DNA of 60,280 nt, filler included, from Jimgerdemannia flammicorona (taxonomy: Eukaryota), in assembly GCA_003990765.1 (NCBI GenBank). It is 2 parts of 2 records of this genome, joined end to end, with 100 filler letters (N's around TTAATTAATTAA, not from the genome) between each part and the next. Parts side by side here need not be neighbours in the genome. Positions count along the whole stretch, not along the records: positions 30,207 to 60,280 come from RBNJ01000455.1; 1 more part is not named here. One strand, 5' to 3'. The position numbers and the translations under genes are program-made. The notes under the pieces were generated by a model that made no database searches, was not told the origin of the DNA, and saw only the letters and a program-made list of their open reading frames with translations. Position 1 is the stretch's first letter. Every line of letters starts with the position of its first letter. Below are positions 28,230 to 55,730 of this stretch, piece by piece.

Positions 28230-28315
28230 CTAGCACAAAAATGTAGTAATAACACCTATCTACCCCAATACCCCGACACCCCATTAAAAAAAAAAAAAAA
28301 AAAAAGCTTCACACG

Positions 28316-29986
28316 ATGCTTGGCTTCCAAGTTCAACCCAAATTCCGGTTTCTGTTCATCGTGACCACCATCTTGATCACGGTGGGCATTGCCAATGGCA
28401 GCCCGACTCCGACCGAGGACGAAGACGTCTCAAACCCGCACCCATGCCACCCCGCAACGCTGCCTGTTTACAAGCTGTCACCAGGCCCCTGTGACGAAGG
28501 TCGAGCCGTAGACTTGGCTCAAAAATTGTACGGTGTCAAAAACTACATAACAAAGTGGCAAGATTCGAGTTTCGTCCTTAAAGGTTCCTGCGGACCTGGA
28601 TCCCAAGTCACCGTCGAGGTGGACAAGTTTAGCGGCGGTATCTGGTCCGCAGACCTGTCGCAGAATTGGAAACCTACTTTGTATCCCTCACTCCCGACGG
28701 ATGAAGAAGCCCGCAAGATTGCTGACGACGTGATTGCCAAGTACGGGCCCAATCTCGACTCCCAGGGACCGTTCAAGATTGGATTCGCCAGCATCGGTCA
28801 CACTACTTACGCCAGCAAAAGTGAAGGTTGCGACCGCGAAGATCGTAAGCTGGACACTCGAGTGAACTACGTGGTGACAGTTAACCATTCCGCCTATGGG
28901 GAGATCCCGATCGTGGGTGGCGGAGCAAAGTTCCAGGTCGGTCTGGGCGATAAAGGTCGTCTGATCTCATATTACGGCACCTGGCGAGTTGCCAACACCG
29001 ATGGCGACGAACACAAGGTTATTCCAAAGGAGGTTGCTGATGCTAAATGGTTGGAAAGCAATGGCGTCGGAAACATGACTTGGAAGTCCTATCTCGCCTA
29101 TTTTGCGGCACCTATAGGCTTGGAGCAGCAATTCCTCTACCCAGTGTATGTCTACGAATCCACCCAAATTGTTAACGGCAAAACAGTTCAAGTTCGTTCG
29201 ACGAGAGTTCCCGCCACCGACTTCTGCCCGGTCATCGTTAACATTGGGCCGCTAGAAGTGTACGAAAAGCCTCGGAAAAACGGAACGGTCCACAAAAAAT
29301 GTCGACACGGCGTCTGCGAAGATTGCATAAAGGAATGTGGAGTCGAATACCTCACCATGGCCCCAGGTTTGGCATCCCTCTCCAAAACCCAAGCAAATGC
29401 CGTAGGTTTTTTGAAGGCACTGGAGGCCGACGGCTGGAAGATTAACTTTAAATGGAGCAATCAAAACGTTTGGCGATCGGATTGGACTATCAATAATGAC
29501 GTCTGGGTCGACGGAGCGGACTTTGTTTTCTACACTGGCCACGCAGGCGGTGACGGCTGGTATTTGGGTGACGGCTCGCTTCTTGCCTACAACCAGATTG
29601 GCCCCAATGTGTACGGTGACACGGATCTCGAGTGGCTAGTCATCGCCGCCTGCGGCCCTTTCCAGGACGATATCATCGAGCCTGGCGAAGGTGACGCCTA
29701 TAGCCGTTGGAATCACGTCTTCAACGGACTGCATCTCATTCTCGGGTACGCAACTGTCTCAGACGACACAGATCTAGAGGGTACCATGCTCATCTCGAAC
29801 GCCCGCCAAGGTTATACACTCCTCGAATCCTGGTTTAAAACCGCAGCTGCAGCCCAGAATTCAGACGTTTATGCAGCCGCCATGTGGGTACACGATGCTT
29901 ACAACGATCATCTCAATGGTTATGGACCCATTTCCGAGGATGTCAAGAAACCCACTTCCTTCGGCTTGATGTGGGCCCCTTGCTGA
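28316..29986 (+). CDS. Secreted DUF6345-like protein with putative clan-CD (caspase/gingipain-like) His-Cys dyad, single exon, 556 aa
   Basis: Intact 556-codon ORF with a hydrophobic signal peptide (FLFIVTTILITVGIANG). C-terminal motifs WVDGADFVFYTGHAG and DLEWLVIAACGP, and FNGLHLILGY, are recognised from memory as DUF6345-type. Confidence 0.8.
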   Translation: MLGFQVQPKFRFLFIVTTILITVGIANGSPTPTEDEDVSNPHPCHPATLPVYKLSPGPCDEGRAVDLAQKLYGVKNYITKWQDSSFVLKGSCGPGSQVTVEVDKFSGGIWSADLSQNWKPTLYPSLPTDEEARKIADDVIAKYGPNLDSQGPFKIGFASIGHTTYASKSEGCDREDRKLDTRVNYVVTVNHSAYGEIPIVGGGAKFQVGLGDKGRLISYYGTWRVANTDGDEHKVIPKEVADAKWLESNGVGNMTWKSYLAYFAAPIGLEQQFLYPVYVYESTQIVNGKTVQVRSTRVPATDFCPVIVNIGPLEVYEKPRKNGTVHKKCRHGVCEDCIKECGVEYLTMAPGLASLSKTQANAVGFLKALEADGWKINFKWSNQNVWRSDWTINNDVWVDGADFVFYTGHAGGDGWYLGDGSLLAYNQIGPNVYGDTDLEWLVIAACGPFQDDIIEPGEGDAYSRWNHVFNGLHLILGYATVSDDTDLEGTMLISNARQGYTLLESWFKTAAAAQNSDVYAAAMWVHDAYNDHLNGYGPISEDVKKPTSFGLMWAPC

Positions 29987-30106: not shown

Positions 30107-30206
30107 NNNNNNNNNNNNNNNNNNNNNNNNNNNNNNNNNNNNNNNNNNNNTTAATTAATTAANNNNNNNNNNNNNNNNNNNNNNNNNNNNNNNNNNNNNN
30201 NNNNNN
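30107..30206. other. Assembly gap with artificial linker TTAATTAATTAA
   Basis: Runs of N flank a 12-nt all-frame stop linker at 30151-30162. Confidence 0.97.
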
Positions 30207-33200
30207 CACCCGGACACGGCGAAAGCACTATTCAGCCTGGCTGACTTTTACTACAGTCAACACAGGTTTACCGATTCGGAGGCGTTGCATCAACGGGTTC
30301 TGGCGAACCGGGAGAAGGAGTACGGGCCTGAGCACCGAGAGACCGCGGTGTCACTGAACAGTCTAGCCATGCTTAATAAGAGGCAGGGCAAGTATAGCGA
30401 AGCCGAGGAACAGTACAAACGGGCGCTAGCAATTTGCGAGAAGGTATTAGGAAACGAACACCCGCAAATGGAAAGGACACTTAGCAATCTTGCCAACCTC
30501 TACGGCACTTTGAACAATTATAACGCGGCCGAGAAACTACAAAAACGGGCTATGGCGATCTCGGAGAAGGCATGGGGAATTGACCACCCGCATACTGCGA
30601 CGGCACTGAGCGGCTTGGCCGTGATTTATAAGAATCAGAGCAAGTACGATGAAGCGGAGATGCTGCAACAACGGGCGCTGGCAATTCGCAAGAAGATTTT
30701 GGGATTGGAGCACCCGGACACCGTGACGACTGTGAACGAACTGGCCCTGATCAAGCAGCTCGTCGAGACTAAGGATCTACAGATTCCTTTTCCAGTCAGC
30801 AGAAACCAGAGCGGACACGGTGCTCAGGCAGATACCGGGATGTCTCTCGAAAATCTGGCGGCAGCCGATACCAGGACGCCTCTCGAAAATCCGGCCGCAG
30901 CCGATACCAGGACGCCTCTCGAAAATCCGGCCGCAGCCGATACTGGGACATCTCTCGAAAATCCGGCCCCTGTCACTAGCACTCAGAGAGAGCACGGTGC
31001 CCAGGCAGATATCGGAACGACCCCAGCCAACATCGATGGGCACAGTGCTCAGGCGGATGTCGGGACGTCTCCAGAAAATTGGAACCGTGAGCTGCCAATC
31101 GCGAAAGAAAGCCGAGAATCAGACAACATGGATACCCTGACGTTTCAAGGAAATCGGGCCCCAGATAAGAACCAAGACCATTCGGGGAATATACCGAGAT
31201 CAGGCAACACAAATACCGAGGCATCGGCTGAAAAAGGTGGCCTGATTCTCCCCTACAACGTGGACGGCATGTTGAAATTGGAAGAGCTTGAGAGCAAGAC
31301 GGAGGTCGATGTTCAGAGTGCCACCAAAGGAGACGACCAAATTCTCCCGTACAACGTGGATGACGCGTTCGAACTGGAACAGGATGACACAATGGTGGCC
31401 AATACCGAGAGTACCACTGAAGGAGAAGGCCTGATTCACCCGTACTACGTGGATTATGTACTCCAAAAAGAAGAGCAGAAGAGCAACGAGGTCAATACCG
31501 AAAGTATTACCAAAGAAAAGGACCCGATTCTCTCGTATAATATGGACGGCATGATCGAATCGGAAGAGCTTGAGAACAAGACGGAGATCGATGCTCATAG
31601 TATCACCAAGGGAGACGACCCAATTCTCCCGTACAACGTGAATGACGCGTTCAACCTAGAAGAGGATGGCATAATGGAGGCAAATATCGAGAGTACCATT
31701 GAAGAAGAAGGCCCGTACTACGTGGATGGTGCACTCGAAGAAAAAGAGCAGAAGAGCAACGAAGGTAGCGCCGAAGGTATCACCGAAGAAGACCCGATTC
31801 TCCCGGACGAAGTGGACAAAGTGGACGAAGAGCTTGAGAGCAAGATGGAGGCCGATGTGCTCCCGTTCGTCGTGGGTGATACATTTGAAATGGAACAGGA
31901 AATCAAATTGGTGGATGCCGAGAGTGCCACTGAAGGACAAGGTCTGGTTTTCCCGCACAACGCGGAAGGTGTGCCCGAAATGGAGGCCAATAACGACATT
32001 ACCACCGTAGGAGAGAACCCGATTCTCCAGGACGACATGGGCAGAGCACATAAACTAAGTGTTGATACAAAAGAAGATGAATTCGAGTATGTATTTTTGA
32101 ATTTTGTATCAATTGTTCTTTTTCAAACATCGCTCCAATTCAAAATTTGTAATCTTCGGTCCCGCTCAGGAATGCCGAAACAGACTTCCACGACTGGCTG
32201 AATAAGCCGCTACCCGACAAGGAGAAAAAGGTCAAAAAGCTTGTGGAGATGCATCAGTTTGGCAATTGCATCAATAGCGTCGTTGAAAAGAAACAAATGA
32301 TCATGTTTATGCCAACCTATTTGCTAGATAAGTTCGGTTGGTACACGGACAAACTCGGCATCTGTTTGTACGTTCGTTGGCCATTAACTATAGACAAACT
32401 TCAATTGCTGAACGACATGATAAAGGAGAATAATACCATTACAATTTTCCATGGTGTCGAGCAACTCGTTGTCGTGGACGATACCACGGCTTCAGAAGGC
32501 GACAAGTCCTCGGATGACAACATCGACGAACCCTCGGATGGTACCAAAGACGAGGGCCAAAGCAATGACGAGAATCGCATGCCAATCAATCAGTCACAAA
32601 GATCTGAGAATGATCCAGCCGAATCATCACCCAAACACGAATCGAACGAAGGCGGGAGCCCTTTTTCCGGAGGTGGCGCGACTTCGGATCTTGGTAACCT
32701 TGGTGAAGGTTCTTCATTTCCGAGAATTGGAGCGGGAGTCGCGGGTCAGGCCTCAAACACCAGTGTCAACAATGGGGAAGGCGGAGATGATGTCGGGCTG
32801 TCAAGACCTGAGGAAATCGACTCTACCCAACCAATGAATGAGAATTGGAGACTATTGCGCTCCTTTTGCGAGTTCTTTTGCTGTTGTCCCAAGAATTCAC
32901 GACATGGACTTCATGTTCCATCGAGCGCGGGTGACAATCCGACCGCTCAATTCATCGAAACAATGAGAACCTCACTTCCGCCAATACTCTCGAACACCCC
33001 AAATGAAACTGTAATATTCTCGATTATGTCCCCCGATAGTTCAAACGAAAAAGCCGATGCTGCTGGGATACATGCTTCGACCGAGGAAAGTGATATACAT
33101 TCAAACAGTATGCAAAACATTATGAACCACAACACATCGAGCGCGGGTGACCAACCGATCGCTCAATACAACGAAAGAATGACAGCATCACTTACACCAA

Positions 33201-34288
33201 TACTCTCGAACACCCCAAATGAAACTGTAATATCCTCGATTACCTCCCCCGACAGCTCAAGCGAGAGAGCTGCTGATGCTGAGATATATGCTTTGACCGG
33301 GGAAAGTGGTACGCACTCAAACAGTATGCAAAACATTGTGAACCACAACAGGGATACCAATGCCTCACACTCAATCAATGCTAACGGATGTGTAAATCAC
33401 AACCCGAATTACACAAGTTAGTATGGCATACATGCAGCACTTTCCGCTTTGACATCATTCTCACCACATTTTTTTATTTTACCAGTTATCAATAATTGTC
33501 CCCAAGGTGCTTCCGTATCCGAAATGCCAAAGGCCCCAAAGTTTATTGTCACTGTCTGCACTGTGTCAACAGCGAAACTGGAAGACAGGGGGCAGGAGTT
33601 TACCATTGATTTTACCCTGAAGATCGCAACCACCAAATGGTCGCACAAGTTTGAATTGAGCAAGATCGCATTGAGTGGAGGCAAGCAACATTTGATTAAA
33701 AATAGGCGTTATTTCTTCAAGAATTTCCGCATCGAGATTGTTCCTTGCAACGATAGGATTAGCTGTACCGATGCGGAGCCAATTTCGAAGATAACGAACC
33801 ACTGGGATATCGCTCAAACTGGGGATAGCAGGGGAATCATATGGTGCCATCGCGTGGATCAACCTGTCATGAAGGCGAGAATTTTGAGACATCAGATCGA
33901 GACTCACATGGCGGAGTACAAGTGGGGATGTTTTAAAACGGAACCGACCGAATACTTCGTTAACTTGAAAGTTGGCTTCACCTTCGTGAAGAGTAATTTC
34001 AAGGATTTCAAGGATAGTTGTTGTCAAACAAATGGCGATGGCGATGACAATGACAATGACGACGATCTGGTAAACTCTGTCTCCGTACAAGTCAAGAACA
34101 TTCGAGAACATGTTGAAGTAAACGAAGTGCCCGAAGCACTCGAGTGCATTTGGGAAGTCGATGGGAAAGTCGAACTCGATGAGCATGGACCACATTTTAA
34201 GAATATTCATCTTAAAAAATGTAGTGATTGCTGTAATGTGAAGGCTCGTATTTGCAACGTTAAACAAGACCAAAACATGTTATCTTAA
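30207..34288 (+). CDS. 5'-incomplete TPR (NLR-type) protein with repeat tracts and fused C-terminal domains; exons <30207-32086, 32170-33416, 33486-34288 (>1309 aa)
   Basis: HPDTA..L..LA-type 42-aa TPRs are open from the gap edge. Introns GTATGT...CAG (32087-32169) and GTTAGT...CAG (33417-33485) join the three track ORFs in the correct phase. Confidence 0.82.
30825..30975 (+). repeat. Coding 36-bp tandem repeat (ADTRTPLENPAA)x4
   Basis: GCAGCCGATACCAGGACGCCTCTCGAAAATCCGGCC units with a 36-bp period. Confidence 0.9.
31240..32040 (+). repeat. Coding acidic ~31-aa repeat (ILPYNVD...ES.T.G..), ~9 units with ~94-aa higher-order period
   Basis: Visible in the translation and in the DNA. Confidence 0.85.
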
Positions 34289-38916: not shown

Positions 38917-39345
38917 TTAAAGGAGATATACTTCCTTCTTGTCTGAGCTTCCGAATCCTTTGGCTTGCCTTGTTCCTTCAGTCAGTTCAGATACTTCCTG
39001 TAATTGTGGGGTCCTGACCTTTATGAAGACTGCTTGGGCAATCTTCTGTCCTCTAATAATTCGGTGCCATTCTGCACTACTGTTGTGTAAGATAACCTTG
39101 ATTTCGCCTGTATATCCTGGGTCAATGGTTCCTCCTTCTATGGTTATTCCTTGTCTGGTAAGTCCAGACCTTGAGGTCAATTGGATGTAAGCTCCTTGGG
39201 ATGGCTGCATGGCTAATCCAGTTCTGATCATGAAGGTTTTTCCAGGCTTGATAAATTCATCCTCCAGACTGTGAAGATCATATCCTATATCCTCTGGGTG
39301 GGCTTTGGTTAGGGGTTTGGCCTTGGGATGTAGCAGGGCATACTG
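38917..39345 (-). pseudogene. dUTPase domain within gypsy pol
   Basis: Motifs DIGYDLHS, SRSGL, GTIDPGYTGEI, KIAQAV and RQAKGFGSS. Confidence 0.92.
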
Positions 39346-42300
39346 GGCAATGTTCTTGCTAAGTTCAGGCTTTCCTAAGGCTGAAGCTCCACTAGCAGAG
39401 AGCCTCCAAGCTCTGAGATTGAGGTGTGGCCATCTGGTTCCAGTAGAGGGATCTTAGAGATAATTGATTCCTCTTCTTCCTGTAGGGTCTAGGGCTTCCA
39501 TGAAGTTGGTAGCATCTTCTGCCCATCCTTGGCAGGTTGCATGTCTGATGAGAGCTAGGATATCTTCTCCCAAATCATAGATCTTGAGGATTCTTCTTCC
39601 TGGCTTCTTGGTTCAGCTTTTTTGAATCTGGCCTCTGTTGTCTCCTCTCTTTAAAGTATGGACTGCAACATCATGACTAAGGTGAATCTTCTGATGTCTA
39701 CAGTCTTGGCAGTCAGGGTGTCTTCCATGGTTGTAATATCCCATTGCTTGGAAATGATGTTTCTGGTTATTGATCTCTTATTGTCTTGGGAATTGGTACC
39801 CATCTTGGTCATAGGTGGGTGGAAGGCAAATGGTCTTCCACTCTCCCCAAGACAACTGCTATCAGTGCCATTTACTGGACCAACAGGAGAGACAGAGACC
39901 CCAGAGACCAGACCCCCTAAACACACTTGCACAGTCAACTACCTTTCAAGAAGTTACCACCAAGCTACAAAGCTGATTCAGGGGGCACGGCTTCTTCATG
40001 TGTGGACATCTTCCTAGCTGAAAAGCTTTCTCTTGGTGAGTTTCTTTCTTGGGGATAATGGTGATAGTACTGGGTCCTTCTTCTGTATTCCAAGGGTCAT
40101 TGTCTTTGGGTGGTGTCCAGCAAGGGTCATCCTAGGGAATGAGTTCAGAGACCTCTTCTTCTTCAGGTGCTTCTTGTTCAGGAACTTCTTGGTCAGAAGT
40201 TTCTTCTTCCTCAGATGATTCTTGACCCCAAATTTCTTGTACTTCTGCAGCTTCAGTTGCAGGTGTTTCTGGAACATGTCGGCATTTCTTCTTCTTCCTT
40301 CTGCACTCTGGGCAGGCTGTGCCAGGCGATTTCCTTGTTCCCATGATCTTGGAAGAGTGCTCAGGATACTTGTGTCTCTTGAGGCAGATAGGGCATCCTT
40401 TGGCTTCTCCTGCAATGGCTCTGATGGTGATGGGGATAGTGTTCTTAGCCCATACATTGTCTTCTGGTCTGTCATCCACCAGGTTAATTCGGGGATTGAG
40501 TCTGGGATCATTTCCATCTTCAGATTCTTCCTCTTCTTCTGTGGTAGATTCTTCACTACTGGCATATTCTTCCTGAATAGTGACCTTCTTCTTCTTCTTT
40601 GATTGCTCATAGCTGGTCACCTTAACTCTATACTTCTTGTCTCGGTAATCAAACTTGAGTACTTATTGACCAATATCAACAACTGCATTCATTTCCTTCA
40701 TCCAGTTGGTGCCAAGAATCATGTCATAGGTGACAGCTTTGGTGATAACAGCTTTGAGGATGGAGAACTGAATGTGTCCAAGGGAGATAGTGATATTTCG
40801 TACTTCTCCAAGGGGTTGAGTTCAGGCTCCATCTGTTACTATGATGCTGAGGTTGGATGGTCCATCAATGGGGCATTGGAGGGTGTCCAGGAACCATTTA
40901 GCAATGACACAGACAGCTGCTCCTGTGTCTATGAGGATCTTTGCCTTTTGTCCTCCAATATCTCCATATAGGTAGGTGCTGACATATCTTTCAGCTGCTT
41001 GAACAGAGATGGGAACTGGTTCTTGCTGTGGGATTGGGACTCGGCCAGTGCTAGACCTGGTGGTTCTCAGTAATTTGTTTTGAACTCCAGCTGGTGTCAG
41101 TTGCAGGAACTGCAGGAGGGGAACTTCCATCTTGGCCTCTTGGATCTTCTGCCAGGCTTCATTATAGATATCTCTGGGCATGGTCTTTGGGGAGTATTTT
41201 TTCTTGGACTTTGGGGCAACAGATTCCTATTCTTCTTGTTCCATTTCTTCATCTTCTGGTGGCAGCTCATTTGTTTCTGGGACAAAAGGTGAGGGGGTTT
41301 GGGGAGATGTTTCTACTTGTTCTTCTTCATGTTCTTCATCTTCCTCTTGGATGGTTCTTCTGCTGACATTTCTGAATGGCCTTCCTACAGGTCTCTTCCT
41401 TTTCTCTGCTGGGTAAACTGTTTTCTGGGTGGTAACCTTGGTAGGATACAAGTCTAGGTCACTGTAGTCTTTGCTGTTGCTTGCTTCCTTGAAATCTTCA
41501 ACAGGATGGGCTTCAGTCTTCTTGTACTGAGTATCATTCCTTTGGTTTGGTGGTTCTCAGTCCCTTTGGTCACTTCTTTTGTTATCACATTCAGTGGCAT
41601 AGTGTCTGTATTGTCTACAGTAAAAGCATTAGACTTGGGCTCTGTCTCAGACAGGGTACCTTCTTTCTTCTTGCTGGTAATTCCTGTTATCTCTTGGTGG
41701 ATAACCTTGGCTTCTCTGTAGTGGATATCCTCTGTTATCTTGGTAGCCCCAATTTTCACATGTGGTAAGTTTTTCAATCTGTGCAACCAACTGGTCCAAT
41801 TTGGAGCTGAGGTCTTGAATTTCACTTCTGTCCTTTATTCCTTCCTTGGCTGGCCTTCTTTCTTCAGATATTTCTTATCCTTGAAGCAGTCCTTGTAGGG
41901 CTTTGACCAGGATATCTTCTTTATCTTCTTTCTTGTCATGGTCACTCCAGGTAGTTCCTTGTCTGACATCAAAGAATCCTTGGGCTGCATCTACTTGCTC
42001 TTCAGACCTTCTGATGCCTAGGGTGCGGACATGCTGGGCAATTTTTGGAGGAATTCCATTCATGAAGGTCATTGGACCTATGATGTCCTGGTTGGTGGCA
42101 TTGAACCCAGCAGTATGCATTCTCTTCTGGATTCTTGTGAAAAAGGCTCTGGGTGACTCTCTAAGATTCATCTTCATCTCCATGATGGATTCTTGAGCCT
42201 TGTGGTGGGTTTCATTTCCTGCATACTTTTCAATGAGCCAGTGGACCATGGCCACATATTCTAGCTCATAAGATAGTGCTGCTTGTATCTGTCTTGCTAA

Positions 42301-45628: not shown

Positions 45629-46667
45629 TTACAAATACTTCTTCACATAATCCTCGCTTACACTCCACAATCACTCCGTCGCCATTGGATCTCTCGCCTG
45701 TTCTGCCAGCGGGCGCGACACGCTCACATCTTCCGGATACGCTCCGCCTTTGTCCTTGAGCTCGGGTACTGAAATCACCTAAACTTGTGTCGCGGTACCT
45801 TGCGGCACCGTCTTCCAGAAAGCGGCAAAATTGCCCTTGGCATCTACCCACCCTTTCCTTTGCCTCTCCTCCATGTCGATGTGGTGCTGAAGCGGCGTCG
45901 GGATGTCACCGTGGTAGACACTGAAGGCTTCAACACCCATGGAAGCATAGAGCTTATTAAGTTAGTAGGCGAAGAGAATGTTGGAAGTTTTGGATTGGCC
46001 GTACGATTCCCATTTTTCGTAGGAGTGCGTGGTGAAATTTGGATCGGAGACGTTGATACCCTCTGTAGCTGGTGAAACGAATGGAATTAGGGGTAGAAGG
46101 TAGAAGGGGTGAGAAGGAATGATACTTTCAATGTCAATCTTCGACAATGAAAGTAAGGCGGAGAGAGAGAAAACCCATATAAACCAAATATCACTCACCT
46201 AGATTGTGAGCAACGACCACGCGGGTCGGAGCATTGGCTACAACGTTGTCAATCAGGAGTCAAGTGAGGAGGTAGTTAGTGGGCGACATGGTTCGTGCTG
46301 AACTGGGTCTCAAAACCGCCAACGGTCTTGCAAAATGGAGTGGCCATGGTTCCTGGAGACGATGGAAGCTCGGCAACAAAAGTCGATGAAAAGCGTAGTG
46401 ATAACAAAAGAAATTCTCAGCTTACCAGCATTGAGTATTAGCCCGTCCAGCTGCACGCCGGATGCCCTGACGTCTTCAGCCAAGACCTTGACAATGGCGA
46501 AGCTAGACAAGTCCAATTTGTAGTAGGTGATTTCGGCGGAGGGAGTTTCCACCTTGATTTTTGCTCGGCGGCGGTGAGGTCGCGGGCGCCGAAAACAATT
46601 TTGGCACCGTGCTTGACCAAGACACGTACGCTTTCTTCTCCTGTAAAATGCAAAATTTCGGTGTGAA

Positions 46668-46698
<31 letters not shown>

Positions 46699-46818
46699 CG
46701 GATATTGCAAAAGAGAGCATAACACACAAGACCAGAGGTGGCACCTGTAATAAGGAACGTTTTTCCATGTCATCACGGGATCGGCGGTGGGGTGATTGGC
46801 GAAAAGGTGGAACGGCAC
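45629..46818 (-). pseudogene. Short-chain dehydrogenase/reductase (retinol DH/WWOX-like) pseudogene with introns
   Basis: Motifs GKTFLITGATSGLG, KLDLSS, LILNAG, DGFETQF.TNH, YGQSKTSNILF and LWSVSEDYV. Several in-frame stops and frameshifts. Confidence 0.88.
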
Positions 46819-49845: not shown

Positions 49846-52675
49846 TCATAAAATCACACAGCATATTTTCCTAGGTTTGACATCGCCATCGTGGGCCTGG
49901 TGATTAACAGGACTTCCCAGAGATGGTTCGTTGCCCGTGTTGGCTGCTCCCCGCCTCTGCTTTTCCTGGTCACGGTACTGGTCCTGTTGCTTAACTGGGC
50001 CCAATTTTTCCGGAGATGCGTCATTATCCATGTTTTTGGGTCCCGGCGGGATTAGTTGATTATCGTCCAGGCGCTGAGCTGGGGCCACATTTCCCAAAGA
50101 TGTCTCGGTAATCGTGTTGTCTGATTCCTTAGCTGGGGACCGATTTCCGAAAGATGGCTCGGTAATCGTGTTGCCTGAGCTTGGTTTCACTTCCTTAGCT
50201 GAAGCCCGATTTTCGAAAGATGTCTCGGTAATCGTGTTGCCTGAGCTCGGCTTTAGTTCCTTTGTTGCTGAGGCCTGATTTCCGAAAGATGTCTCGGTAA
50301 TCGTGTTGTCTGAGCTCGGCTTTAGTTCCTTTGATGCTGAGGCCTGATTTCCGAAAGATGTCTCGGTAATCGTGTTGCCTGAGCTCGGGTTTGCCTCCGT
50401 AACTGGGACACGATTTACGGATGATTTCTCGGTATTCGTGTTGCTCGACTTCGGATAGATCGTTGGCTCACGGTGCTCGTGATGGTTGTTAAGGGGTGCC
50501 GGATTTCCCACAGACGTCCCAGGATCCCTGTTGGCTGATACCGGAGACGTCGCAGTGCCTGGATGCTCCAATTCCAATGCCTTCCCCGCCAAACCGTTCA
50601 GCGCCTTTGTATGCGGGTGATCTTTCCCGAAAGTCAACTCCAATATTTCCAGAGCCCGCTTGTGCAGTTTGTCGGCCTCGTCGCATTTGCCCTGGTTTTT
50701 GTAGACTTGGGCCAGTTCGATCTGTGACATCGCAGTGTCCGGATGCTCAGATCCTAACACCTTCTCCCGGATTGTCAGGGCCCGTTGATGCAGCTTCTCA
50801 GCTTTAGTGAAATCGTTCTGACTGTAGTAAACTCCAGCGAGGTCATACAATGACATCGCGGTGTCCGGGTGGTCGGGGCCCCTCTTCTTCTCGAAGACCT
50901 CCAGCGCTCGTTTGTGATGCTTTTTAGCCTTGCCGTGCTCACCCCGCCTCATATATAGCTTGCCCAGATGATTCATTGAAGTAGCGGTGTCCGGGCCATT
51001 TATTCCAAACTCTATTTCGCGAATGCCCAGCGCCTCGTTTTGTACCCGCATCGCTTCGTCGTAGTTGCCGAGGCCTTCGTAAATCACGGCGAGGTGGTAC
51101 AGTGATATCGCGGTATCCGGGTGATCTTGCCGGTTAACCATGTTTGAAACCTCAAGTGAGAGAAGTGCTAGTTCCTCTGCTTCCGAATACGCTCCGTTAC
51201 CCCGAAGATAATCAACTGCTCGGATGAGTAGGTTGTGGAGGTCTTTGGACTTGAGCGGTTTCCGGCTGAGGTCAAGCCATGTGACAAAATGTTGTATGTG
51301 GGAAAGATACGTTTCCATGATCACTCGGGTCGGAGGATCGTATGGATTTAACGAATTAAATGATTTCGTCTCGTTGTTAAGGGCGGTGGCAATATTTTTA
51401 GCCCATTGCAGTTTCTTTTTGTCTTCCATCGAATCGTAGATGGCCTTCTGGACCAATCGGTCAATTGTCAGGAAATAGCGCCGTGGGTCCTCTTTGGAGT
51501 CTTTGACTTCCTTTTTCTGTCTGGTCACGAAGGAATAATTGGCCAGCAAGGCAAAGGCTTTTTGTACGGATTCCAACGGCTGGTCCTCGTCCTGCTTGTT
51601 TGCTGACAAAGAAGCGCGAAGTCCAAGAATAGAATATTGTTTTTCGAAAAGGCGCATAGGAATGTTATCTGGTTGGAGAAAGACGCAGGCTTCAAGGATC
51701 TGCGCCGCTGCGGGATTTTGTTTTTTAATGCGTTCGAGGGAGACCTCCCAGACTGTAGCGAGCGAGTGTTTGTTCAGACCAATGCCGTTTTTGTCGTCAT
51801 TTCGGAACAGACTTTCCTGCTTCGTCATCAACTTGTCCGCATAATCTCGAAGGGTGATATCCGAGGTCTCAATGTATGCTCGTGCGAGATGGAGTGCGAA
51901 CGGCATGCAATCGAGCTGGGTGATGATCTCTTTTGCAATATTTAATTCTTCGTTAACCGAATCCATTGTCGAACCGTCGAGCAACATAGCGATTGCTTCG
52001 TCATGTTTCATCTTGTCGACTTTGATCACTTTTGCCACCTCAGAAGGGATGGGTTCACGCGTGGTTAGGATGATGTGGCCACCGATGCGGGGCAAATACT
52101 TGAACACCTCCGTGTCTGTGTCGTAATTGACGTTGTCCAGAAGGAGCAACCATCCTTCATTTTTCTCAAGCCAATCGCGAACCCCTTCGATGATCTTCTC
52201 TCCTGAGGTTTTCTCCGCTGCGATGTCCTCGCCGGGGCTCAGATTGATGGCCAGTTTGTGAAACGAATCAACCGTCGTACGCCAGTCGCCAACCTCCAGC
52301 CAGAAAGCGTATTTGTATGATTGGAAGTGGATGTAGCAGTAATGAAGCATCAACTGAGTCTTGCCAATGCCTCCCATTCCTTTGAGCGCCAAAATTCCGC
52401 ATGGGCCTGGCAAGGGGCTTTTGTCCAGCTCGGTCTTCATATTTTCCAGGATTTGTGGGCGTTCGACGAATGCCAAGTTCCGAGCAGGGACGCCGTAGAA
52501 TTTATTTTTGACAGTTACTTTGACTTTGATGTGTTGAGAGGAGTAGATGATTGCGACGTTTTAATATTATACAGAGCGGTATTGAAGAGTTTTAGAGACC
52601 GTGAAACCGAGGAGGCAATCTCATGTAGAACTTACGATTGCGAGAAGACTTTCTTTTTCTCTTGTTGGTGTCCAT
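49846..52675 (-). CDS. NB-ARC-TPR NLR-like protein with repeat tail and C-terminal CaaX box; predicted exons 52675-52636 and ~52523-49846 (~905 aa)
   Basis: Walker A GMGGIGKT, Walker B WLLLLDNV, IILTTRE, GLPL-like CMPFAL, 4-5 HPDTA TPRs, and end KPRKICCVIL*. An in-frame stop upstream of VPARN requires splicing; ATG 52675 plus a GTAAGT donor at 52635 and an AAG acceptor give the correct phase. Confidence 0.88.
50095..50450 (-). repeat. Coding ~69-bp tandem repeat (PSSGNTITETSFGNQASASKELK)x5-6
   Basis: GATGTCTCGGTAATCGTGTTGCCTGAGCTCGG units on the + strand. Confidence 0.9.
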
Positions 52676-55121: not shown

Positions 55122-55730
55122 ATGATGCTCTACAAGCTGAAAGTGCTCGGAGCGGCTGGTTCGGGCAAGGAGGACCTGGCCCTCATAATGATGGCGAACA
55201 TCTTTGACGAATCCTACAATGCAAACACCGAGGATTCGTATCGAAGGCAAGTGGTCATCGACAAACGACCGTGCGTGGTGGAAGTTATGGACATAAGCGC
55301 CGCAGAGGAGTACACTGCTCCGAGTGACCAAGATATCAGGGACGGTGACGGATTTCTCATCCTGTATTCCGTCGCCGATCGCTCCACCTTCGAGCAGGTT
55401 GAACGTTACTATGAGTATATAATTCGCGTCAGAGACGAAACCGTCCCGGTGATGCTGGTCGGTAACAACTGTGATAGAGTGGCGGAGCGCGAAGTGGCGA
55501 GAGAGGAAGGGATTGACATGGCCCGCCGAATCGGAAGTGATTTCATCGAGGCCTCCTACAGGGGTCGCCTCAACGTTGAGAGGTCCCTCTACACCGTTGT
55601 GCGAAGGATTAGAAAACATCGGGATGGCGATAACAAAGACGGTAACAAAGGCAGTAACAAAGGCGGTAACAAAGGCGAGAAAATGACGAGTGCGCGCGGC
55701 GCCGGGTGCAAGATGTGCAATGTACAATAA
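55122..55730 (+). CDS. Divergent intronless Ras-family protein (fungal Ras2/Mucor Ras3-like) with degenerate G-boxes, 202 aa
   Basis: Reads MMLYKL..LG..G.GK, EDSYRRQVVID..PCV.EV.D, EEYTA..DQ.IRDGDGF, VPVMLVGN.CD, EREV.REEG, NVERS.YTVVR; ends CKMCNVQ. Confidence 0.9.
   Translation: MMLYKLKVLGAAGSGKEDLALIMMANIFDESYNANTEDSYRRQVVIDKRPCVVEVMDISAAEEYTAPSDQDIRDGDGFLILYSVADRSTFEQVERYYEYIIRVRDETVPVMLVGNNCDRVAEREVAREEGIDMARRIGSDFIEASYRGRLNVERSLYTVVRRIRKHRDGDNKDGNKGSNKGGNKGEKMTSARGAGCKMCNVQ

Follow-up and report, generated by a model that had tools for sequence, protein, structure and literature searches.

A CVIL-ended NB-ARC/TPR gene of Jimgerdemannia flammicorona and a plausible lineage-specific geranylgeranyl anchor

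The window considered here is a stretch of 60,280 nucleotides (nt), filler included, from the fungus Jimgerdemannia flammicorona (assembly GCA_003990765.1), which joins parts of two records; positions 30,207 to 60,280 come from RBNJ01000455.1. On the minus strand of this part, at 49846-52560, lies a frame that is open from stop to stop over 904 codons (2715 nt) and encodes a protein of the STAND class (ATPases that act in signal transduction and have numerous domains), built of an NB-ARC domain, DUF7779 and tetratricopeptide repeats (TPRs). Its last ten residues, read on the minus strand from 49878 down to 49849, are K-P-R-K-I-C-C-V-I-L, followed by TGA. This end combines a basic patch, a pair of Cys residues and a CaaX box of the type used by geranylgeranyltransferase-I (GGTase-I), and it makes a lineage-specific, geranylgeranyl-anchored STAND protein a plausible reading of the gene.

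The NB-ARC/TPR gene and its C-terminal residues

The gene can be laid out as follows, from its stop codon towards its 5' end. Published work is given here and below by PMC number and is drawn on for excerpts of its text.

49846..49848, minus strand: TGA stop codon of the NB-ARC/TPR gene (from the sequence)
49849..49860, minus strand: CaaX box C-V-I-L, of the CaaL type, a GGTase-I signal (from the sequence; also the ScRho5 box, PMC11304957, and the box of a green fluorescent protein (GFP)-basic domain (BD) reporter, GFP-BD-CVIL, PMC3886798)
49861..49863, minus strand: second Cys, at position -5, putative S-acylation site (from the sequence)
49867..49878, minus strand: basic patch K-P-R-K, at positions -10 to -7 (from the sequence)
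50566..51141, minus strand: TPR_10/TPR_12 array, residues 474-665, of about 4-5 units and shorter than that of the relatives (Pfam, alignment, and predicted local distance difference test (pLDDT) values above 90)
51415..51729, minus strand: DUF7779 (residues 278-382), which forms the winged-helix part of the STAND module (Pfam, alignment)
51865..52449, minus strand: NB-ARC domain, residues 38-232, with P-loop GMGGIGKT, Walker B LLLLDN and a TTR motif (Pfam, alignment)

An earlier note on this DNA had described the end of the protein as a basic patch, an adjacent Cys and a CaaX box, CVIL. All of these are read directly from the minus-strand sequence, and the presence of a CaaX box at the end of an NB-ARC/TPR protein is confirmed; the site had been placed at 49846-49875, which holds PRKICCVIL and the stop codon and leaves out the first K (49876-49878). 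The NB-ARC-TPR architecture that the note had read from the sequence is likewise borne out by Pfam, with matches to NB-ARC over residues 38-232 (E 3.4e-11; 43.3 bits, cut-off 23.5), to DUF7779 over residues 278-382 (E 3.2e-8) and, over residues 474-665, to TPR_12 (E 2.3e-52) and TPR_10 (E 3.6e-48). GMGGIGKT, LLLLDN and ILTTR line up with invariant columns in the alignment with relatives, and an AlphaFold2 model, computed from a shallow alignment of 7 sequences, reaches pLDDT values above 90 across the TPR part (residues 440-658). With regard to the features that define the class of the NLRs (NOD-like receptors), the protein has the NB-ARC NTPase and the TPR sensor repeats, and has neither an N-terminal effector domain nor the MHD-type His. 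The role of immune receptor, which the earlier note had proposed, is a putative one that follows from this architecture.

Relatives were gathered with a whole-protein search, which yielded 162 proteins at E <= 1e-10 among 7999 candidates scored, and with a profile search of 1.84 billion representatives, the best 150 of whose matches were mostly to the TPRs only. Together these make a set of 265 proteins, the query included. Nine eukaryote-like proteins among those retrieved form a close clade with the window protein (P0003-P0006, P0008, P0012 and, added by the profile search, P0122, P0123 and P0127); they are 37-48% identical to it across the NB-ARC half, the next best retrieved relative being 31% identical. 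In common with fungal and bacterial NB-ARC-TPR STAND proteins at large, the window protein has the P-loop, Walker B, TTR, DUF7779 and a TPR_10/12 sensor array, and its nearest named relatives of this kind are hypothetical proteins of Calcarisporiella thermophila and bacterial "FxSxx-COOH system tetratricopeptide repeat" proteins.

The top database match, P0002, a 760-residue hypothetical protein of J. flammicorona, represents the same gene: BLASTP aligns the two over residues 344-904 with 557/561 identities, all four mismatches falling at a predicted-intron join, and the P0002 model ends in the identical KPRKICCVIL. It begins at Met41, that is, 40 residues late, and treats as an intron 104 residues (244-347) that are kept in 6/6 aligned relatives and include several invariant columns. 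Because of this late start and the removal of conserved residues, the 5' half of the public model is probably incorrect; its doubtful stretch corresponds to 51520-52440 of the window, on the minus strand.

The start codon of the window gene is itself not secure. The frame opens just 20 residues before the conserved FYGVP...VERP block, and a tblastn search with the N-termini of seven relatives against the 2.5 kb upstream matched only the known FYGVP block. One hypothetical first exon can be proposed:

52636..52675, minus strand: hypothetical first exon of 13 codons, MDTNKRKRKSSRN (inferred from sequence and frames)

This putative exon is followed by a GTAAGT donor at 52630-52635; the AAG acceptors are weak, and the acceptor is uncertain. 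Five clade members (P0003, P0008, P0012, P0122 and P0123) have G/N-rich N-terminal extensions of 40-60 residues with h-x-h-G-N-like patterns, reminiscent of the motifs by which fungal and bacterial NLRs carry out amyloid signalling. A Pfam scan of the extensions of four relatives gave no meaningful match.

The orphan tail and its CVIL box

Beyond the TPR array, the protein continues in a tail that sets it apart from the NB-ARC-TPR relatives retrieved:

49849..50565, minus strand: orphan C-terminal tail of 239 residues (666-904), with a high content of S, N, P and T (composition, pLDDT, open frame)
50125..50444, minus strand: in-frame tandem repeat of 69 nt (23 amino acids), 4.8 copies (repeat search, composition)

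The earlier note had spoken of a long disordered repeat tether, and this description agrees with the 4.8-copy repeat and with the AlphaFold2 model, in which residues 658-904 have a pLDDT of about 25, a proxy for disorder rather than a measurement of it, and almost no secondary structure. As the tail is unstructured in this model, the C-terminus should be accessible. The terminal pair of Cys residues are the only two in the 239 residues of the tail.

Several properties of the tail DNA are coding-like. It has no stop in frame, whereas its other two frames contain 6 and 11, and 0/20,000 mononucleotide shuffles of it stay open. The GC content is 0.46-0.59 along the tail and drops to 0.23-0.32 just beyond the stop codon; the repeat period of 69 nt is a multiple of three; and the donor motif GT[AG][AT]GT occurs nowhere in the 2715-nt frame. 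With a frame that stays open, a GC content that falls at the stop and no strong splice donor, the CVIL box is probably the real C-terminus of the gene. An origin of the tail as frameshifted TPR sequence was considered and rejected, as the other two frames, besides their stops, hold no TPR-like sequence. A search for sequencing runs that contain this sequence gave no RNA run and a single soil-metagenome DNA run, which shares 7% of the words; it yielded 20 small records, two of which match the NB-ARC part at 99-100% and none of which covers the tail.

The box itself has what GGTase-I recognises according to the excerpted PMC11304957 (Cys at -4, a nonpolar a2, and L, F, I, M or V as the last residue), with L in the final position. 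The same source reports that the yeast enzyme modifies Cxa[L/F/I/M/V] best, which backs the earlier note's reading of CaaL as a GGTase-I signal; it also identifies CVIL as the native box of Saccharomyces cerevisiae Rho5, and reports that Ydj1-CVIL gives a prenylation gel shift and that Rho1-CVIL supports growth. In tobacco cells, GFP fused to the basic domain of rice CaM61 and CVIL is geranylgeranylated and carboxyl-methylated, and lies at the plasma membrane, moving to the nucleus once geranylgeranylation is blocked (PMC3886798, in excerpt). As it is competent in the settings of Rho5, Ydj1, Rho1 and a GFP reporter, CVIL is a transferable GGTase-I signal. The earlier note's label of a Ras-style anchor has to be dropped, since the final L makes the signal Rho-type (geranylgeranyl) rather than Ras-type (farnesyl). 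In these published cases the tetrapeptide is identical to that of the window protein, basic residues lie upstream and the end is geranylgeranylated (PMC11304957, PMC3886798); the cargo here differs, being a STAND ATPase of about 660 residues on a 240-residue leash, for which lipidation is a prediction.

Upstream of the box, the KPRK patch at -10 to -7 and the Cys at -5 form a candidate second membrane signal. In the tails of small GTPases, basic residues and S-acylated Cys residues next to a prenylated end contribute to membrane binding, and on that model KPRK and Cys -5 may play the same parts.

How often such an end would arise by accident was estimated for 16,800 proteins, the upper Endogonales proteome size in the excerpted PMC7928374, using clade amino-acid frequencies. 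About 6.5 ends of the form C-a-a-[LFIMV] are expected; requiring a second Cys at -5 lowers this to about 0.08, and requiring in addition three basic residues at -10 to -7 lowers it to about 0.0004; these estimates are rough, and the features were defined after the motif had been seen. The background rate of terminal CaaX boxes in a proteome is put at 1-2% (PMC10541624). Read in this way, the composite of basic patch, CC and aaL is unlikely by chance.

Neighbouring genes in the window

Two neighbours touch on the interpretation of the tail. The first (30207-32201, plus strand) is a second TPR_10/12 array directly after the N run (about 30108-30206), its upstream part lost. It is 33% identical to the TPRs of the NB-ARC gene and is followed by a long, acidic, repeat-rich tail of low complexity; the tails of the two TPR genes show a faint likeness in DNA and protein, with 32 nt at 87.5%. 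Close to the apparent end of this gene there is a GTATGT donor-like site; its frames extend as far as 34288, interrupted by one in-frame stop (33419-33421). Because this second gene also has a repeat-rich, faintly similar tail, the style of a short TPR array with a long floppy tail may predate the NB-ARC gene.

The second is a single-exon K-Ras-like gene (55122-55730, plus strand; Pfam Ras E 5.2e-33, best PDB match KRas E 4.3e-44), which is transcribed divergently about 2.4 kb upstream of the NB-ARC/TPR gene. Its product has an altered P-loop (GAAGSGKE), YNANTEDSY as switch I, DISAAEE replacing DTAGQEE, NNCD, and SYR replacing SAK, and is probably a pseudo-GTPase on these changes; it retains a CaaX end of its own, CKMCNVQ. 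Capture of the NB-ARC/TPR tail from this gene was considered and rejected, there being no DNA or protein match between the two.

The remaining neighbours are an open reading frame (ORF) with a signal-peptide-like start and a DUF6345 match (28253-29986, plus strand; E 1.6e-39) immediately 5' of the N run, an ORF with a dUTPase domain (38917-39453, minus strand; E 9.1e-26), and a short-chain-dehydrogenase-like TGxxxGxG motif at 46500-46770 on the minus strand, recognised by eye only. Because the dUTPase and the short-chain-dehydrogenase-like neighbours are ordinary eukaryotic genes, the contig appears to be fungal and not a contaminant.

Competing explanations and implications

The explanation towards which we lean, with limited confidence, is that CVIL marks the true 3' end of an NB-ARC/DUF7779/TPR STAND gene whose product is geranylgeranyl-anchored, probably dually lipidated, and held at a membrane through a leash some 240 residues long. 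The last ten residues would then be a composite membrane-targeting signal made up of the KPRK patch, the spare Cys and the CVIL box. If the protein is made, GGTase-I would geranylgeranylate Cys -4, the VIL tripeptide would be cleaved off and the new end methylated, after which Cys -5 might be S-acylated, with the basic residues contributing electrostatic membrane binding. The ATPase/TPR switch would thus hang by its long leash from the cytosolic face of the membrane, and both the binding of ligands by the TPRs and nucleotide-dependent oligomerisation would take place there.

A number of findings weigh against this explanation, and conservation is the first of them. The earlier note had named in advance a failure of homologs to conserve the CaaX end as a result that would count against it, and on this point the proposal is not supported: the searches gave no relative of the tail, and the closest homologs (37-48% identity) have other C-termini. 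Residues 660-904, searched against 4994 candidates of similar length, matched nothing but the gene itself, and they had no match among 4629 shorter ones, and the tail is present in 0/9 clade relatives. The C-termini of these relatives vary, one carrying a MYND zinc finger (P0004) and one being a partial record, while most stop after the TPRs. A metagenome scan gave 34 loci, among which only L001-L003 are close (46-50% identity), L002 and L003 being N-terminal fragments (residues 15-200 and 17-163); no ortholog with a comparable tail was found among the 34. On these comparisons, the CaaX tail is a lineage-specific feature.

A Cys at -4 does occur in 2/9 clade relatives, at non-homologous positions: P0008, from Calcarisporiella, ends in CIIS straight after a TPR helix, and P0005 ends in CFQQ on the junk-looking end of an automatic metagenome gene call. 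With the window protein counted, a Cys at -4 is found in 3/10 clade members against 2/254 other retrieved relatives (Fisher p 3.8e-4) and a canonical box in 2/10 against 0/254 (p 1.3e-3); without it the clade count is 2/9, with only CIIS canonical. This enrichment deserves little weight, because the index protein is included in the counts, most of the proteins compared are prokaryotic and their gene models have no independent verification.

Further such findings concern the body of the gene. No in-frame ATG stands ahead of the conserved FYGVP...VERP block, and the 40-60-residue N-terminal extension of the relatives is absent, so that the window protein, compared with them, lacks a recognisable N-terminal effector. 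The MHD-type site reads LTIDRLVQ, with Asp for His, where the aligned relatives have His (5/6) or Arg (1/6). The shorter TPR array, as judged by the alignment, ends mid-unit at ...LNGLAG/KALELEHPGTATS, and the units of the tail repeat are nearly identical at the DNA level, which indicates a recent expansion.

Together with the orphan state of the tail, these findings speak for the strongest competitor, which we consider unlikely and nevertheless take seriously: a neutral, accidental motif, not under selection, on a tail of young age in an NLR paralog that is decaying. On this view the TPR array would have been truncated and a low-complexity, minisatellite-bearing extension would have become the new end; the gene may then be poorly expressed or silent, and any prenylation would be a functionless by-product. 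The 6.5 or so CaaL ends expected by chance in a proteome leave room for such an accident, as opposed to the full composite signal, which is expected in fewer than 0.1 proteins per proteome. Against decay stand 904 codons free of stops and frameshifts, a tail that stays open where no shuffle does, and a GC content that is coding-like along the tail, unlike the AT-rich flanks. The long repeat tail of the second TPR gene, faintly alike, hints moreover at a type of tail older than one accident.

An artefact of the gene model, in which the mRNA would stop or splice before reaching the tail, or the tail would be part of a different transcript, is improbable. The public model is demonstrably poor elsewhere, with its late start and its loss of 104 conserved residues, which lends the idea some credit; against it, the TPRs and the stop lie in one unbroken frame, which holds no strong donor motif, the composition breaks at the stop codon, the repeat keeps a period divisible by three, and an independent automatic annotation picked the same end.

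The least probable explanation is an integrated decoy, in which the tail would imitate a Rho/Ras GTPase in its hypervariable region and lipidated end. Geranylgeranylated, palmitoylated and polybasic, such a sham GTPase tail would station the NB-ARC/TPR switch at the membrane; cleavage or modification by an enzyme of an endobacterium or mycoparasite would release and trigger the receptor, and the adjacent divergent Ras-like pseudo-GTPase, which has a CaaX end too, may serve as a co-guarded bait. Small GTPase tails share the basic-Cys-CaaL layout, ScRho5 has CVIL as its box, a degenerate Ras-like gene that ends in a CaaX adjoins, and C-terminal additions have precedents in the MYND finger of P0004 and in the non-canonical add-ons of fungal NLRs (PMC12258605, in excerpt); no GTPase tail, however, is detectably homologous to it in sequence, and the proposal draws on general knowledge of protease effectors.

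A membrane-anchored STAND protein of the kind we favour would add a prenyl route to those in use among NLRs. The known anchors of plant NLRs are N-terminal acylations, and the membrane anchors known for NLRs in general are acylations. A full-text literature search found no description of a CaaX-prenylated NLR or STAND protein. Two systems offer partial likenesses, according to excerpts of the respective papers. Human OAS1 p46 is a prenylated intracellular sensor of innate immunity that is directed to endomembranes by a C-terminal CaaX box, a placement of importance to its function (PMC7612834, PMC8357416); it differs in being an animal nucleotidyltransferase, not a STAND protein, and in gaining its CaaX through alternative splicing. 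NLRP3 is an NLR held at membranes by basic residues and a lipidated Cys (PMC11392533), whereas its S-acylation is internal, near the NACHT domain, without a CaaX box or prenyl group, and its architecture is NACHT/LRR rather than NB-ARC/TPR.

As far as the excerpts go, one survey lists 0 NLRs in 20 Mucoromycotina proteomes (PMC7928374) and another, which covers 122 proteomes, as few as one NLR per species in Mucoromycota (PMC12258605). Because these surveys found none or few, a complete NB-ARC/TPR gene in Endogonales is notable. What more it means depends on the explanation adopted. An accidental motif on a decaying paralog would be of value for annotation only, and an integrated decoy would mean that an early-diverging fungus possesses a guard system with a prenyl anchor. 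Should the anchor be real, a STAND switch can reach the membrane by the Rho-type prenyl route, and the Cys residues of the tail would provide a simple, testable handle on where such receptors act.

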